Assembly: GCA_963674595.2 (NCBI GenBank) | Contig: CAXXFV010000004.1 | Span: 96,001 to 160,000, forward strand | Direction: 5' to 3' | Length of the DNA: 64,000 bases | DNA from: a bacterium | GTDB lineage: Bacteria; Zhuqueibacterota; Zhuqueibacteria; Residuimicrobiales; Krinioviventaceae | Shown here: positions 16,527 to 59,784 of the stretch, in pieces | Layout of the letters: each line of letters starts with the position of its first letter | Numbering within the stretch: the first letter of the stretch is position 1 | The notes under the pieces: generated by a model | Database searches by the model: none | The model's input: the letters and a program-made list of their open reading frames with translations, nothing else | What the model was told of the DNA's origin: nothing | Position numbers and translations under genes: made by a program

Positions 16527-16542
16527 TGGTATGCTTGTTGCT
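16527..16542 (+). promoter_or_regulatory. Sigma54 (-24/-12) promoter
   Basis: TGGTATGCTTGTTGCT, with GG-N10-GC; 67 bp upstream of ATG 16609. Confidence 0.72.
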
Positions 16543-46698: not shown

Positions 46699-47601
46699 TT
46701 GATGAATACAGACTTTTCCGATAAATTTAAAATTCAACATAATGTCTCACTGGCAGATTATACATCTATAAAAATCGGGGGTAATGCTAAATATTTAGCC
46801 TCCATCTCCGACCTTAATTTGTATATAGAACTGTATCTTTTTTGCAAAGAAAAAAATATCCGCTTTTTATCACTGGGGCATGGTACAAATGTATTTTTCC
46901 CCCAAACAGGTTTTGACGGACTTGTTGTGATAAATAAAATGGATAAAATATGTACATGCAGCGGAAACTCGATCCTTGCCCAGTCAGGCGCTTCTCTTGC
47001 TGATGTAAACAAAACATGTCTTGAAAATTCATTGACGGGTTTTGAATTTACCTCGGGCATCCCGGGCTCAGTTGGCGGCGCTGTTTTCGGAAACGCCGGC
47101 GCCTACGGATGTGCTATTGGCAACAGACTGATACGTGCAAAAATATTGACACCGGAAGGAAAAATTTCATTTGTAGATAATGATTTTTTTAAATTTTCTT
47201 ATCGCAGCTCATACCTCAAAGTTTATAATGCCATACTTTTAGAAGCAGAATTTCAATTCCAAAAAGGGGACCAGCAGATTATTGAAAATAAAATCAATGA
47301 AATTTTGGAACTTCGCAGGCAAAAATTACCTGATCATAATGTCCCGACTGCCGGTTCGTATTTTAAAAATTTAAAAGACCAAAAGGGAAACCCGATCGCG
47401 GCGGCAAAATATCTTGATGCTGTAAACAGCAAACAAACCAGTGTTGGCGACATTGGCGTTCATTTTAAACATGCCAACATTTTTTATAATAAAGGCAAGG
47501 GCACTGCCGACCAGGTGCTGGAACTTGAAAAAATTTTAAAAGATAAAGTCCTTAAAAAGTTTGGAATCGACCTGGAAAGAGAAGTCATGTTCCTGGAATA
47601 A
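46699..47601 (+). CDS. murB: UDP-N-acetylmuramate dehydrogenase
   Basis: IGGNA, GHGTN, GIPGSVGGAVFGNAGAYG, YRSS, AGSYFKN, KHAN and LEREV. Confidence 0.95.
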   Translation: MMNTDFSDKFKIQHNVSLADYTSIKIGGNAKYLASISDLNLYIELYLFCKEKNIRFLSLGHGTNVFFPQTGFDGLVVINKMDKICTCSGNSILAQSGASLADVNKTCLENSLTGFEFTSGIPGSVGGAVFGNAGAYGCAIGNRLIRAKILTPEGKISFVDNDFFKFSYRSSYLKVYNAILLEAEFQFQKGDQQIIENKINEILELRRQKLPDHNVPTAGSYFKNLKDQKGNPIAAAKYLDAVNSKQTSVGDIGVHFKHANIFYNKGKGTADQVLELEKILKDKVLKKFGIDLEREVMFLE

Positions 47602-47683
47602 AACAATTCTGTGTTTTTTTTAATTTTTTGCACGGGGATTTGAAACGAATTTATCAATTTTGATTTTATAAACCGCTATAACG

Positions 47684-47715
47684 TACAAAAGGTCCGGAGG
47701 ACCGGACCTTTTGTA
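47684..47715. terminator. Bidirectional intrinsic terminator
   Basis: Perfect 14-bp inverted repeat TACAAAAGGTCCGG-AGGA-CCGGACCTTTTGTA. Confidence 0.88.
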
Positions 47716-47853
47716 ACTGGGCAATGTTAATGCGGGGGTGAATGGAGTTTTTATAAAAACCAGAGCTCACTGATGAATATCAATGGGGCTCTTCAGGGGA
47801 TGTTAAAAATGTAACTCGGCCATCCCGATAGTGAACCCTGGATTCGTTTTCTA
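47686..47853 (-). ncRNA. Candidate sigma54-dependent small RNA (~165 nt)
   Basis: Sigma54 promoter at 47864-47879 and terminator at 47684-47715 bracket a GC-richer segment with no meaningful ORF. It holds two hairpins and a C-rich single-stranded region. Confidence 0.55.
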
Positions 47854-47863
47854 CTTTTACTTT

Positions 47864-47879
47864 AGCAACATTCATTCCA
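47864..47879 (-). promoter_or_regulatory. Sigma54 (-24/-12) promoter
   Basis: Minus strand TGGAATGAATGTTGCT, with GG-N10-GC. Confidence 0.65.
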
Positions 47880-48009
47880 TTTTGGAAACATTTATCCAAA
47901 AACAATTAAAAAAAATATTGCACAAGTCTTTATTTTACAATACCAAAAAATGTTAATTTTTTGTCAAAACAGACAGGCGGGCCAATGATTGAGGCCTGAA
48001 TGAAAAAAA

Positions 48010-48047
48010 CGACATAAATGGATGACAAAAGTCTTAAAAAAGTGTCG
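48010..48047. promoter_or_regulatory. Tandem upstream activator (bEBP) sites
   Basis: CGACA-N8-TGACA (48010-48027) and AGTCT-N8-TGTCG (48030-48047), 20-bp period as at 16408-16445. Confidence 0.45.
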
Positions 48048-48049
48048 GG

Positions 48050-49741
48050 TTAATTTTTATAATAGAGAGTTATACCCCATGAATCCGGATTATCAGGTTC
48101 GCAAGCATTCCAATCTTCAAAGCTGTGGCTATCATCACTGATATAATAAAGCACATAATCTCCAACGTGCAAATTTATTTGATCTTTACATAAACGATTT
48201 TTTTGAGCGCCGCCGGCACTGGTCGTATTTTGATATTCCATCTTCCAGACGACAGTTCCCTTAGAATCTTCAATCCAGCCATAATCATACATTTCCATTT
48301 GTTCCCCTTCCCCAAGGGCATAGATAAGGATGGGGGAATTCTGAGAAACAGTAAATTGCTTTTGTCTTTTTTCATTATCGCCGACTTTAGTAATGGAAGC
48401 GATATAGTTCGGATCATTTTCTTTAACATAAGAAATAACATCATCCGGTACAAACGAGCTGTCAGCCGGGAAAAGAGAAATTCCCCAAAATTCAGAATCA
48501 ACCGGAGGTGCATCGTTCCATTGATTATAGGCATGAGAATCATCTGAACGATAATACAGGTAATAAGCCCCTGCGGGCAGTTCAATAATCTGGTCCGCCA
48601 TGCGGTTCTTTTTTGCTCCACCGGCATGTACAGTATTATTTCTATTCATTGACCACACCGTTTCATGGGTTCCGGCATTAACAATCCAACCATGATCAGA
48701 AAATTGTTTACTATGTTTTACCTGTTCACCAAGAGCATAGATTCTCACCTTGGTATCTTTTAACAGCTCAAAGCCCTTTTTAATAAAAGCATTGTCTTGC
48801 ACATTGGTAATTTTAATAATGGTTTTATCAATAATTTCTTTGTTGTTTAAAAATTCCACAAATTTCATATCTTTCGGAGAGAACCACAAAGTTATTCCCC
48901 AGTATTCCGGATCATAGGGAATACAATCATTAAATTCTTCAAAGGAATGAGAATCGTCTGTAATAAAAGTCAGTTCATATTCCCCCGGAGGAATGGAAAT
49001 TATTTCTCTAAAAAGTCTGTTTTTTCTGCTGCCACCGGCATAACGTCCTTGTCCGGATTGGGGCTGCCAAACAACCTTTCTTGTTTTTGCATTTAAAATA
49101 ACGCCATAATCAAACAAATCCCGGTCCGACCTCTGGGCTTCCCCCAGCATATAAATTTCAGCTTTTATGGTTTTTTTAACCACAAACAACGATTTTAAAG
49201 ACTGATCATCCCCAACCTTAGTTAATTGAATACCGGGCCGGCTGGTAATAAAATTTTTTAACGGATAGCATTGATCCTGGTTGCTTTTATAGGGTGTAAT
49301 TTTCAGGTAAAAGTTGTCTTTTTTTGATTTTAATTTCAGCCCAGCCATCAATTCGTCAAATAAGCCTTTATCATGTTCATTTACTTCCTGTTCAAAGCAT
49401 AAAATACCGGCATAGGCTTCGTAGGATCCTTTTCTTAAAACAACCTGATTTTGAATTGTTACAAAATTATAATCTTTTGAGGAAACATCGGTTCGGTCCA
49501 CTTTCCATACAAGGTCACGCGATTCGGAATCCAGCAACCAAAATAAAGCTATAGGTTCTTCATCCACCACCGGAATAACAGCATCTATTTTTACTGTCAT
49601 TTCATCATCGACCCGAAATGATTGTTTTTCCCACTGGTTTTCCTCAAATTGATTAATAAGGACGACCGGGTCACCCCAGGTTTGAGCCGTTAAGAGTTGA
49701 ACAGAAAAAATCCAAAATCCTAAAATTAATTTTATATACAT
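48050..49741 (-). CDS. Secreted protein with 3 conserved and 1 degenerate ~125-aa repeats (DDSH motif)
   Basis: Signal peptide; repeats share LGE, D[YH]G, VW, AGGxxKNR, DDSH and WGI. Confidence 0.85.
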   Translation of the reverse strand: MYIKLILGFWIFSVQLLTAQTWGDPVVLINQFEENQWEKQSFRVDDEMTVKIDAVIPVVDEEPIALFWLLDSESRDLVWKVDRTDVSSKDYNFVTIQNQVVLRKGSYEAYAGILCFEQEVNEHDKGLFDELMAGLKLKSKKDNFYLKITPYKSNQDQCYPLKNFITSRPGIQLTKVGDDQSLKSLFVVKKTIKAEIYMLGEAQRSDRDLFDYGVILNAKTRKVVWQPQSGQGRYAGGSRKNRLFREIISIPPGEYELTFITDDSHSFEEFNDCIPYDPEYWGITLWFSPKDMKFVEFLNNKEIIDKTIIKITNVQDNAFIKKGFELLKDTKVRIYALGEQVKHSKQFSDHGWIVNAGTHETVWSMNRNNTVHAGGAKKNRMADQIIELPAGAYYLYYRSDDSHAYNQWNDAPPVDSEFWGISLFPADSSFVPDDVISYVKENDPNYIASITKVGDNEKRQKQFTVSQNSPILIYALGEGEQMEMYDYGWIEDSKGTVVWKMEYQNTTSAGGAQKNRLCKDQINLHVGDYVLYYISDDSHSFEDWNACEPDNPDSWGITLYYKN

Positions 49742-49751
49742 AATAAATCCG

Positions 49752-50594
49752 TTATTTTACAGTTATATCCAGTTCGCCAATTCCCGATGAAATGACAAGA
49801 TATAATGAATTTTCAGCCGTGTTATAGTTTTCCGAATAAAGATATTTGCCTTTTTTTGAAAACCTGGTCGGAAAATTAATTTGGGACAAAAAAGATAAAG
49901 ATGAAACTTTGATTTTTGTACCAACCGATTCAGGAATAATTACCGATGTTTCACCAATGTCGAGATCGATTTTGGCCATGGTTCGGTGTATTCTCTCACC
50001 GGTAAAATCGACAGTCATTTCACCAATGCCGCCGTTTATGTCAGCTTCTTTAAAATTCGCATTTCCAAGATTTCTTAATGTAAGCTCACCGACTTTAACA
50101 TTGACGTCAAATGTTTCCATGGGTATTTTATTGGGCTGGAAAAAGTCAACATCAACTTGACCTGCCCAGTTTATCAAATCAAAATTTTTTATTCTCAAGC
50201 CGCCTACATCATACTTGATTTCACCAGCCTTTATTCTGCTTTTTATATTAATAAAGGGCTTTTCAGGCAAACGAACGATGAGTTTTGCGCTTTCCTGACC
50301 ATTTGTGTTTTTCCAGACTTTCCAGTTTTTAAAATCAAATTTAATATCGAGTTCATTTTTTCTTTCATTAAAACGGATATCACCTCTGCTGTTTTTTTCA
50401 CTGTACTTTAGTGAAACCCAAACATAATCCTCATCATGTCTTTCGACAATGACAATGCCGCCGTCTACCTCCAAATTAATCTGAACATTGTCTTCCACGA
50501 CATAAGATTCTTCTATAACTACCCGTTGTTCCTGCGCAAAGACACAGGTAACGAGCAACAAAAAAAATGAACATAAGATAATAAACTGCTTCAT
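49752..50594 (-). CDS. Exported beta-helix protein, DUF2154/LiaF-like (adhesin-like)
   Basis: Signal peptide; GE-repeat coils (KAGEIKYD, KVGELTL, GIGEMTVD, DIGETSV, GIGELDI). Confidence 0.72.
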   Translation of the reverse strand: MKQFIILCSFFLLLVTCVFAQEQRVVIEESYVVEDNVQINLEVDGGIVIVERHDEDYVWVSLKYSEKNSRGDIRFNERKNELDIKFDFKNWKVWKNTNGQESAKLIVRLPEKPFINIKSRIKAGEIKYDVGGLRIKNFDLINWAGQVDVDFFQPNKIPMETFDVNVKVGELTLRNLGNANFKEADINGGIGEMTVDFTGERIHRTMAKIDLDIGETSVIIPESVGTKIKVSSLSFLSQINFPTRFSKKGKYLYSENYNTAENSLYLVISSGIGELDITVK

Positions 50595-50632: not shown

Positions 50633-52396
50633 TTAAAATTCCTTTTTCAATCGTATTGTAACAACAATATCGCCGTCTCCGACATCGGTCCGTTTTGCAA
50701 AATTGATGCGGAAATCATCATCATCACTGGACAGGCCAATTCCGACATTTGTTTTTAAAGAACTCCATGTCAATGAGCTAAAAGAGTCATCCAGCTTTTT
50801 CTCGTTCATTTTGTCCACATATTTCGGGTCCATGGGCCAATACGATTGCATTTCAGGAGTATTGCTTTCAGCGAACCAGGCACATCCGGAATCAACAAAT
50901 AATACAAGGTTCATTTCATCGAACAACGTCCAGTCCAATTCACTGGTTTCTAACGTGTATTCAATATTTGCTAATAACATCCGGTCACCTGTAAATTCTT
51001 TATGACGGTACCCTCTCAAAGTCGACAATCCTCCCAAATCAAACCAATACATGGGCGGTAAAACACCATTTGACGAACCAATTCGCAGCCGAAGGTCCAG
51101 TCCTTCATCCCATCCAAGTGGTTGATATCGCCTCACATCAAGAATTTGTCTTTGGAAATCAAGATCACTTTTCAGACCATTTCCGGCTTTTTCAGCAAAA
51201 AGATTAATAAACCATCCACGTTCCGGGTTTTCGTCATCATCCCTGGTGTCATAAACCAGATTAAATGAATAACTTTGCAGATTCATGTGGGGATCATTAC
51301 CGGCCGCTATCTCGTTCAAGCAGTAACCATAGGGAAGAGCCCAGGGATTGGGCCGAAAATCTTTACTCTTGCCAAACACGGCCCATTCGGTATTTTTTTC
51401 CAAATTATTTATTTTATCGTTATGATAGCCAAATTTTAATGACAACTGATCAAAAAATCTGTTTTTTGCATATATCGAAAAACCTTCCCGTTTATAATAG
51501 TCCCGGAAATCTTCATTTATTAAAAATGCACCCAGGGCATTTTCCAAATCACTGATAATCCAACGGTCTTGTGTATCTGTCATATCGTGGGCCTCGGCCC
51601 CGACTGTACACGCAAAAATTGGAAACACACAACGTTCCAGACCTATTTGATATTGTATATTTTTGCTTGAAAAGGAATAACCAACTTTACCTATTACACC
51701 GATTCTTTTTTGCTCTTTACGCCACCATTCGCTTGACGGAAAATTGAAACCGAGTGTCAACCCATCAACCCGGTTATAATCCGCGTAAACAGGTTCATGA
51801 TCTGACTGGAAGTTATGACGAACAATTTTGCGTTTTGGACGATGATGCTCGGTTGTAACATGAATTTCTTGTTCCTGCCTTTCCTCATCCGAAACACGGT
51901 TATAATGATTTGAACTTTGTCGCTCTATAATATCACCTTCAACAAAAGCATTTCGATCTTTCCAGATTTTACCGTCTACACAAACAACGTCTCCCTCAAC
52001 ATAAGCATCTGCTTCAAGATGAATATCTCCAAACAAGGTCAATATCGTTCCTTCAACCTGTCCGTATAACGTCAGGGTGCCTTTTACAACTAATATATCC
52101 GACCCAATCACTTTATCGGACGCAATTTCAACATCACCAAAGTATCTTTCAATATGGTTACCAACTCTTTCCTCTTCACCGATTTCGCCCTCTGTCTCTT
52201 TACCGGTACGAAATTCATTCATCCCTAGATACTTTTTCTCCATCTTTTCAGCAATTTCCTGCTCCTTTTCTGAAAGATTGGAATATTTCGGATCCTGAGC
52301 ATAAGTCCTTTTTGTCAGTAATAAGCTTAAAATAATAATAATTGCCATAATAGCCCAAATCCAGTACAGAATTTGTTTTGCCCGTGATTGTCCCAT
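50633..52396 (-). CDS. Omp85/BamA-TamA-family beta-barrel with N-terminal bactofilin-like beta-helix
   Basis: GDVEI..GTLTLYGQVEG..GDIHL..VEGDVVCVDG coils; YNRVDG; L6 motif LGGLSTLRGY; LFVDSG; terminal Phe. Confidence 0.8.
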   Translation of the reverse strand: MGQSRAKQILYWIWAIMAIIIILSLLLTKRTYAQDPKYSNLSEKEQEIAEKMEKKYLGMNEFRTGKETEGEIGEEERVGNHIERYFGDVEIASDKVIGSDILVVKGTLTLYGQVEGTILTLFGDIHLEADAYVEGDVVCVDGKIWKDRNAFVEGDIIERQSSNHYNRVSDEERQEQEIHVTTEHHRPKRKIVRHNFQSDHEPVYADYNRVDGLTLGFNFPSSEWWRKEQKRIGVIGKVGYSFSSKNIQYQIGLERCVFPIFACTVGAEAHDMTDTQDRWIISDLENALGAFLINEDFRDYYKREGFSIYAKNRFFDQLSLKFGYHNDKINNLEKNTEWAVFGKSKDFRPNPWALPYGYCLNEIAAGNDPHMNLQSYSFNLVYDTRDDDENPERGWFINLFAEKAGNGLKSDLDFQRQILDVRRYQPLGWDEGLDLRLRIGSSNGVLPPMYWFDLGGLSTLRGYRHKEFTGDRMLLANIEYTLETSELDWTLFDEMNLVLFVDSGCAWFAESNTPEMQSYWPMDPKYVDKMNEKKLDDSFSSLTWSSLKTNVGIGLSSDDDDFRINFAKRTDVGDGDIVVTIRLKKEF

Positions 52397-52435: not shown

Positions 52436-52451
52436 CGCAATCCTTATGCCA
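52436..52451 (-). promoter_or_regulatory. Sigma54 (-24/-12) promoter
   Basis: Minus strand TGGCATAAGGATTGCG, near consensus, 40 bp upstream of ATG 52396. Confidence 0.8.
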
Positions 52452-59768: not shown

Positions 59769-59784
59769 TGGCATTAAAATTGCC
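59769..59784 (+). promoter_or_regulatory. Sigma54 (-24/-12) promoter
   Basis: TGGCATTAAAATTGCC, near consensus, oriented toward the gene at 59944. Confidence 0.72.

Follow-up and report, generated by a model that had tools for sequence, protein, structure and literature searches.

A candidate lineage-specific small RNA at the 3′ end of a sigma-54 envelope operon in a bacterium of the phylum Zhuqueibacterota

The DNA discussed here is a stretch of 64,000 nucleotides (nt), hereafter the window, from a bacterium of the family Krinioviventaceae in the phylum Zhuqueibacterota (assembly GCA_963674595.2, contig CAXXFV010000004.1, positions 96,001 to 160,000), whose genome measures 6.62 Mb at 38.8% GC, is 97.6% complete and yields 5212 open reading frames (ORFs) of at least 90 aa in crude gene calls that mark 88% of it as coding. 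The candidate element occupies a 448-bp gap between two convergent genes, namely murB on the plus strand (46699-47601; UDP-N-acetylenolpyruvoylglucosamine reductase, with the Pfam domains MurB_C and FAD_binding_4) and, on the minus strand, a gene termed P0001 (48050-49741; 563 aa, with a hydrophobic N-terminus and without a Pfam family). An earlier note on this DNA had proposed that the gap holds a stand-alone small RNA transcribed from a sigma-54 promoter of its own. The present analysis agrees with that note that there is an RNA-like, constrained stretch on the minus strand, and arrives tentatively at another origin for it: the 365 nt from the P0001 stop codon (48050) to a terminator at 47684-47715 may form a lineage-specific, structured tail of a sigma-54 operon, from whose 3′ end a small RNA would be derived via read-through and processing. 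The candidate is an orphan prediction from sequence, and the weight placed on it is modest.

P0001 is the third gene of an operon on the minus strand. The first gene encodes an Omp85-like outer-membrane protein of 587 aa (50633-52396; Pfam Omp85 4.3e-19, DUF5686 1.6e-10) and the second a protein of 280 aa with a LiaF-like C-terminal/DUF4097 ‘toastrack’ domain (49752-50594; LiaF-like_C 3.4e-08, DUF4097 6.5e-07), the intergenic gaps being 38 nt between the first two genes and 10 nt between the second and P0001. Sigma-54 promoters follow the consensus TGGCAC-N5-TTGCW, with the GG and GC exactly 10 nt apart, and for the scores given here a sigma-54 matrix was trained on 81 well-placed intergenic sites of the organism’s own genome, with the motif inside the candidate left out. 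On this matrix a canonical sigma-54 promoter, TGGCATAAGGATTGCG (52436-52451, minus strand), scores 18.0 bits; some 40 nt further on come the GAGGA ribosome site and the ATG (52396) of the Omp85-like gene, whose homologs have a site scoring 14 bits or more upstream at 18 of 20 loci across the order (own locus counted). Together, the score and the recurrence across loci argue with high confidence for a sigma-54-dependent Omp85-like/toastrack/P0001 operon. The conserved promoter also suggests a conserved sigma-54-controlled envelope module, for which a role in envelope stress may be inferred from the Omp85 and toastrack domains only. The corresponding machinery is encoded in the genome, with one copy of rpoN (208.6 bits) and 37 matches to the Sigma54_activat domain, of which 30 reach at least 197 bits.

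The candidate RNA lies on the same strand as P0001, downstream of it, and ends at a strong intrinsic terminator consisting of a perfect 14-bp stem (47684-47697/47702-47715) with a 4-nt TCCT loop and a TTTTGT tail on either strand. The earlier note had described this perfect 14-bp stem as the end of the small RNA; it is indeed present, but it is bidirectional, its symmetry making it common to the minus-strand RNA and to murB, whose stop codon lies 83 nt before it. Because murB needs a terminator, one is expected at this place regardless of any small RNA. At the other side of the gap, a terminator-like hairpin (CGACA...UGUCG) followed by U7 abuts the P0001 stop codon (48003-48047, minus strand). 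This hairpin has 5 bp and a large interior loop, with a folding energy of -7.4 kcal/mol (z -2.84, equalled by 2 of 200 shuffles), and a terminator scan called nothing between the P0001 stop (48050) and 47715, the hairpin-U7 included. Since there is no called terminator and only this weak hairpin, the candidate RNA is at least potentially the end of the operon transcript, and the notion of a separate transcription unit loses ground for lack of a strong terminator between the upstream gene and the candidate. The proposed tie to sigma-54 survives in altered form: the candidate trails an operon with a conserved canonical promoter, but the motif within the gap itself, treated below, is of middling quality.

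The predicted body of the small RNA (47716-47853, minus strand) comprises two hairpins and a C-rich tract. Hairpin 1, GGGAUG/CAUCCC (47826-47797), and hairpin 2, AGAGC..CAUUGAU/AUCAGUG.GCUCU (47792-47762), were both claimed previously and both appear in the predicted folds, the second with its one U-G pair. The C-rich tract ACUCCAUUCACCCCC (47748-47734) had been taken to be exposed, and this is borne out by the predictions, in which its bases are unpaired with a mean probability of 0.78 and opening it costs 0.78 kcal/mol. Within it, UCACCCCC agrees at 7 of 8 positions with UCACCUCC at the 3′ end of the organism’s 16S rRNA (...GGAUCACCUCCUUUCU). As UCACCCCC is one base off UCACCUCC, its best partners would be Shine-Dalgarno regions rich in G, and a GGAG, GAGG or AGGA word stands upstream of ~41% of the crude gene starts. 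As a separate observation, a 14-mer occurs in two copies that are identical at 12 of 14 positions, AUGGCCGAGUUACA and AUUGCCCAGUUACA (47810-47823 and 47712-47725), one in the loop of hairpin 1 and the other just ahead of the terminator; this resemblance may be due to chance.

Upstream of the body, a long and imperfect AU-rich RNA hairpin extends over 47859-47927 on the minus strand, with 25 pairs that include four G-U. Its 3′ arm contains TGGAATGAATGTTGCT (47864-47879), the -24/-12-like motif, with a predicted start near 47853, in which the earlier note had seen the promoter of the small RNA. Folded as minus-strand RNA from 47932 to 47852 (81 nt), the hairpin reaches -21.1 kcal/mol (z -5.01, with none of 200 shuffles as good) and makes up 53% of the ensemble, against -7.4 kcal/mol (z -1.51) for the plus strand of the same region, and a fold this good is found in 0.95% of 2217 random intergenic 81-nt windows with a GC content of at most 30%. 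In this hairpin TGGAA pairs with UUUUA, and GAAUGUUGC with GCAAUAUUU. For the long hairpin to fold, the RNA must begin upstream of the motif, either by read-through from the operon or at a sigma-70-like start. A weak site of the latter kind exists (TTGACA, a 19-nt spacer and TGgTATTGT; 47937-47967, minus strand), with a predicted start at ~47930, at the foot of the hairpin. This start was rejected, as TTGACA-N19-TAnnnT is not enriched in the genome (7 occurrences vs 5.2 in shuffled sequence), unlike the form with a 17-nt spacer (77 vs 4.9). Read-through is therefore the likelier source of the hairpin. RNase III, which cleaves structures of this general kind in the closest known system discussed at the end, is encoded in the genome. 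Its domain match (C27:421343-421737, minus strand) comes in two overlapping pieces in different frames (profile positions 1-90 and 83-127), a split that may stem from a frameshift in rnc or from faulty assembly.

Strain variation gives a further view of the gap. Contigs of four runs with near-identical DNA were aligned, at low depth, to positions 47300-48400 (1101 nt). The most diverged strain, X7, carries 32 substitutions and one 4-nt deletion over this length. Specifically, there are 8 differences in the 302 nt of murB coding sequence, 9 events in 47602-47672 (71 nt), none in 47673-47862 (190 nt), 9 differences in 47863-48002 (140 nt), none in 48003-48088 (86 nt) and 7 in the rest of P0001. 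The 190-nt block, which is also unchanged in strain X5, spans from just past the terminator to the 3′ edge of TGGAATGAATGTTGCT, with the long hairpin sitting at its border, and, at the strain level only, the distal tail is less variable than the proximal untranslated region (UTR; 0 differences in 47673-47862 vs 9 in 47863-48002). If the 18 events of the 448-nt gap are placed at random, a clean run of at least 190 nt has a probability of P = 0.0007. The four changes seen within 47685-47927, at 47863, 47880 and 47907 in X7 and at 47709 in strain X17, are all A-to-G on the minus strand, three of them turning an A-U pair into G-U and one falling in an internal loop. The change in X17 leaves the minus-strand stem almost as stable as before (-23.5 to -23.2 kcal/mol), whereas the plus-strand stem is weakened from -23.1 to -18.9 kcal/mol.

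From the anatomy of the locus, the conserved promoter of the operon, the strain-level conservation and the strand-specific folds, a course of events may be inferred that, as a whole, we regard as having somewhat less than an even chance of being correct. RNA polymerase starting from the sigma-54 promoter at 52451-52436 would read past the weak hairpin-U7 and end at the terminator common to murB. The long hairpin (47927-47859) would mark a border, either through cleavage there (e.g. by RNase III) or through protection, and a stable 3′ fragment of ~170 nt (47853-47686) would be left, with the two small hairpins and the exposed C-rich tract. This fragment would act in trans by base-pairing with G-rich ribosome-binding regions, in a manner that requires neither Hfq nor ProQ, and its level would follow the sigma-54 activator of the operon. 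At this border the internal TGGAAT-N5-TTGCT could provide sigma-54 with a further, direct start.

Several results weigh against this reading, and many of them speak for another, in which the gap is an inert 3′ UTR or spacer that ends at the terminator of murB, with the motif, the small hairpins and the C-rich tract present by chance and the clean block a product of recombination mosaicism or sampling. While the full RNA including the terminator has a folding z of -4.58, the 138-nt body without it has a z of only -1.66, and 10 of 200 shuffles fold equally well; the RNA structure that had been claimed is thus there in its letters but is unexceptional once the terminator, itself accounted for by murB, is set aside. 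The seed role of the C-rich tract fares poorly. When a 24-nt seed was run against 5200 initiation regions, the best energy was -22.4, whereas the best energies of 25 shuffled seeds averaged -23.5 (sd 2.2), so that the initiation regions proposed as targets are bound no better than by shuffled seeds (the initiation region of rpoN ranks 211 of 5200); the longest hit in a scan for exact complements of the seed is a 13-mer away from gene starts, which is at chance level. A further scan with a 47-nt seed region was dropped because of implausibly long duplexes. Neither Hfq (PF17209) nor ProQ (PF04352) has a Pfam match in the 97.6%-complete genome, which also sits more easily with an inert stretch.

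The strain evidence has its limits too. It comes mainly from one diverged lineage, X7; the probability of the 190-nt clean run rises to P = 0.058 when the whole 1101 nt is considered, and X7 has another clean run, of 167 nt, within the coding sequence of P0001 (48153-48319). In a simulation, the three X7 changes were not significantly milder on hairpin stability than random ones (ddG +2.1 vs a null of 4.46 +/- 3.31, P = 0.25). Moreover, the hairpin-U7 after the P0001 stop is likewise unchanged in X7, as would be expected if it terminated transcription and the candidate were a unit of its own. On the other side, the non-coding DNA next to the block differs by 6-13%, against which a clean run of 190 nt is unlikely (P = 0.0007); the long hairpin is strongly strand-specific and belongs to the top 1% of AT-rich intergenic windows; and 335 nt is a long spacer to go unused where 88% of the genome is coding, albeit by crude gene calls. 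An inert UTR or spacer is, on balance, a less likely explanation than the processed RNA, though not by much.

Searches for relatives add to the case against a conserved small RNA. That the element belongs to no known RNA family and is no repeat, as had been assumed, agrees with the databases: Rfam 15, whose families include Qrr, GlmY/GlmZ and 6S, gave 0 matches at gathering thresholds over the 64-kb window, and at E up to 10 the region 47550-48100 had 6 matches, the best at 18.7 bits vs a threshold of 50, with no Qrr, GlmY, GlmZ, NrsZ or CrcZ among them, while the element is single-copy in its own genome and has no match in plasmid and phage collections. The comparison with related genomes came back with no relative that carries the element. 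A DNA search of 41 genomes returned the element’s own match and one AT-rich match of 38 nt, leaving 40 relatives without it, and a DNA search of 167 genomes of the phylum returned its own match and two of 30-55 nt (E 0.007-0.009). A covariance model built on the single sequence (R1) scored its own locus at 233.9 bits and the best foreign one at 23.8 among 43 genomes of the order, and the foreign alignments keep neither the hairpins nor the seed. The exact 18-nt seed does occur in 15 metagenome and 13 genome stretches of unrelated organisms, none of which is recognised by the model (best 8.9 bits, E 0.5).

The surroundings of the element also vary between genomes. Of 42 other genomes of the order, 13 have homologs of P0001, at 37-44% identity, and a search of metagenome contigs with P0001 brought up no relatives. 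At the 11 loci that could be read downstream of a P0001 homolog, a gene for a membrane protein of ~200 aa follows at once in 5, a terminator within 30 nt in 2 and another arrangement in 4; a long non-coding tail after the homolog, or a sigma-54 site reaching 14 bits, is seen at none of the 11, and the absence of such a tail in relatives, like that of homologs in the genomes searched, is in line with an inert spacer. The idea that the gap is a relic of the ~200-aa membrane-protein gene was discarded, since tblastn gave only E 0.9-1.2 and an intact copy stands at C4:326911-327480. On the other flank, the ORF maps downstream of murB differ across the loci of 14 relatives, and in the six genomes in which both murB and the P0001 homolog could be placed they are on different contigs or ~170 kb apart. 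P0001 itself has three clear internal repeats, each ending ...AGG.KKNR...Y.L.Y.SDDSH....W......D...WGI.L, and its look-alikes in the protein atlas are clusters without names, mostly from Bacteroidota and Acidobacteriota.

The layout first proposed for this locus differs from read-through and processing in where the RNA begins. In it, transcription of the operon would stop at the hairpin-U7, TGGAAT-N5-TTGCT would be driven by an activator that binds within the 170-nt spacer, and a primary transcript of ~165 nt (~47853-47686) would be made. The -24/-12-like sequence TGGAATGAATGTTGCT is indeed at the place where it had been reported, with the correct spacing, and agrees with the consensus at 10 of 12 specified positions; the genome has its one rpoN and 30 strong enhancer-binding proteins to serve it. 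On the genome’s own matrix it scores 14.8 bits, which ranks it 66 among intergenic GG-N10-GC sites and 149 overall. Intergenic sites of at least 14.8 bits are in clear excess (64 observed vs 11.65 expected from dinucleotide-shuffled intergenic DNA), a point in its favour, but most of this excess lies above 16 bits (56 vs 5.5 in shuffles), while the bin of 14-16 bits has 23 intergenic sites vs 10.6 and that of 14.8-16 bits 8 vs 6.15. The claim of a sigma-54 promoter thus holds in spacing and letters but is dulled by a mid-range score and by the position of the motif in one arm of a strong RNA hairpin. The TGGAAT variant is not disqualifying, because TGGAAT or TGGAAC sites stand at well-placed promoters elsewhere in the genome, e.g. 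at C6:41633 and at C23:155956, the latter 91 nt before a gene and ~660 nt past the match to the AAA+ domain in a gene for an enhancer-binding protein. Taken on its own, and allowing for the absence of a downstream gene, the motif is somewhat less likely to be a true promoter than a chance match.

Other observations bear on the same layout. Among 20 orphan sites examined that score 14 bits or more, the candidate alone is both without a plausible ORF downstream and followed by a terminator ~165 nt on, which favours a small RNA start; small ORFs follow most of these sites (candidate included in the 20), and no paralogous small RNA resembling the candidate was found after any of them. In X7 the 16-nt motif is intact between two changed bases (47863 and 47880), and the clean block begins at its 3′ edge. 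The unchanged hairpin-U7, too, would suit a promoter-driven unit that is insulated from the operon. Against this, the tandem enhancer-like sites that the earlier note had placed upstream gained no support: where an activator site would be expected, ~80-200 bp upstream, the spacer contains just short TGTC/GACA words, including TGTC-N6-GACA at 47975-47962, with no repeat family beyond chance and no activator site identified, and it carries most of the strain differences (9 in X7). The supposed operon terminator is weak (-7.4 kcal/mol), and the pairing needs of the hairpin arm, or a palindrome, could account for the letters of the motif with no promoter at all. In Campylobacter jejuni, moreover, a similar RpoN-like motif precedes a processed rather than a primary 5′ end (PMC11187230). 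Taken together, a stand-alone transcript from a sigma-54 start of its own appears unlikely.

Two sequence features overlap the motif. One is the palindrome TTCCA-AAA-TGGAA (47875-47887), and the other a direct repeat, ATAAATGTTTCCAAA (47881-47895) and ATGAATGTTGCTAAA (47861-47875), spaced 20 nt. These raise the possibility of a DNA operator, and in the same part of the gap a small protein of 31-41 aa could be encoded in the frame 47905/47875-47780. The statement that no ORF exceeds a few codons was too strong in this respect, as frames of 34 aa (GTG, 47770-47666) and 41 aa (TTG, 47905-47780) exist, but none of them has a Shine-Dalgarno sequence and the three short frames have no Pfam match at E up to 1. 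The 31-41 aa frame spans just the first third of the clean block, and the sole strain change within it (47863) turns a lysine into glutamate; the repeats are short two-copy matches of a kind that often arises by chance, and they lie outside the clean block. A small protein or an operator as the explanation of the gap is accordingly very improbable.

Reading through the operon and starting at the internal motif need not be exclusive. In the boldest form of the hypothesis, the candidate would be a dual-origin small RNA, with the same 5′ border produced either by cleavage of the read-through transcript or by a sigma-54 start within the 3′ arm of the hairpin, and UCACCCCC, as a near-copy of the 16S anti-Shine-Dalgarno sequence, would mask G-rich ribosome-binding sites in the absence of Hfq and ProQ and so form the negative arm of the envelope operon. 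We consider this combination a long shot. If the 3′-end small RNA is real, sigma-54-controlled small RNAs and small RNAs cut from mRNA 3′ ends would be extended to a small, poorly studied phylum in a genome where no Hfq or ProQ was found, and an envelope operon with a sigma-54 promoter conserved across the order would gain a post-transcriptional arm. The locus also carries a caution for annotation: a plausible -24/-12 motif before a structured RNA may equally be a hairpin arm in a read-through transcript.

Further sites scored with the matrix deserve mention as observations in their own right. In the window, TGGTATGCTTGTTGCT (16527-16542, plus strand; 17.5 bits) is followed 66 nt on by an ORF of 81 aa with a Shine-Dalgarno sequence, which falls below the 90-aa limit of the gene calls and was therefore missed, and TGGCATTAAAATTGCC (59769-59784, plus strand; 18.4 bits) lies 160 nt before a gene start. 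Elsewhere in the genome, TGGCATTTCGTTTGCA (20.5 bits) occurs in two inverted copies, at C3:50317-50332 (plus strand) and C3:65154-65169 (minus strand), with ~260 nt of nearly identical sequence downstream of each and no gene of at least 90 aa close by; these paired copies seem to mark the ends of a segment that is duplicated or mobile. Finally, a 10-mer, GGGTGAATGG, recurs ~100 nt upstream of five ORFs of ~120 aa (C3:41388, C3:82955, C3:129009, C5:31890 and C10:63585; minus strand), which points to a multi-copy element.

Several known small RNAs offer points of comparison. Qrr of Vibrio, GlmY and GlmZ of Enterobacteriaceae, and NrsZ and CrcZ of Pseudomonas are small RNAs with sigma-54 promoters of their own, and they share the layout first proposed here, in which an activator site is followed by a -24/-12 promoter, a short structured RNA and a terminator. 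Their promoters are near TGGCAC-N5-TTGC and come with mapped activator sites, and Qrr acts with Hfq; the candidate differs from them in its mid-scoring TGGAAT motif and in that no activator site was identified. A second group arises from mRNA 3′ ends within envelope-stress regulons. CpxQ (from cpxP) and MicL (within cutC) are Hfq-dependent envelope-stress small RNAs of the enterobacterial Cpx and sigma-E regulons, and, as proposed here, they are made from the 3′ end of a transcript of the envelope regulon whose repressive arm they form. They differ in that their regulons are those of Cpx and sigma-E, whereas the candidate would belong to a sigma-54 operon whose envelope-stress role is inferred from domains.

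Transcription of glnA is driven by sigma-54 and NtrC. The 3′ UTR of glnA, a nitrogen-regulated gene, gives rise in Enterobacteriaceae to GlnZ, a base-pairing small RNA that ends at the terminator of the mRNA, is cut out by RNase E and depends on Hfq (PMC9731577). GlnZ and the candidate are alike in their origin in a 3′ UTR and in ending at the mRNA’s terminator, and unlike in the need for Hfq, none having been found here; the two have no sequence relation.

The closest precedent is CJnc230 (FlmE) of Campylobacter jejuni, which lies downstream of the RpoN-dependent flgE, is co-transcribed with it and is cut free by RNase III where a long stem-loop is predicted; its processed 5′ end has a conserved RpoN-like GG-N-TTGC motif just ahead of it, and CJnc230 acts on its targets by repression at their ribosome-binding sites (PMC11187230). 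CJnc230 is ~98 nt long, is present Campylobacter-wide, has an additional RpoD promoter and was seen by Northern blot, differential RNA sequencing (dRNA-seq) and reverse-transcription PCR (RT-PCR) (PMC11187230). CJnc230 and the candidate are unrelated in sequence and by Rfam. The products of the parent operon are envelope proteins here and flagellar ones in Campylobacter, and the candidate is confined to near-identical strains and predicted from sequence, whereas CJnc230 is conserved across Campylobacter and has been seen experimentally. What both have in common is a place downstream of a sigma-54 gene, an RpoN-like motif and a predicted long stem-loop, and it is this shared arrangement that makes CJnc230 the nearest model for a small RNA that may be released from the 3′ end of the present operon.

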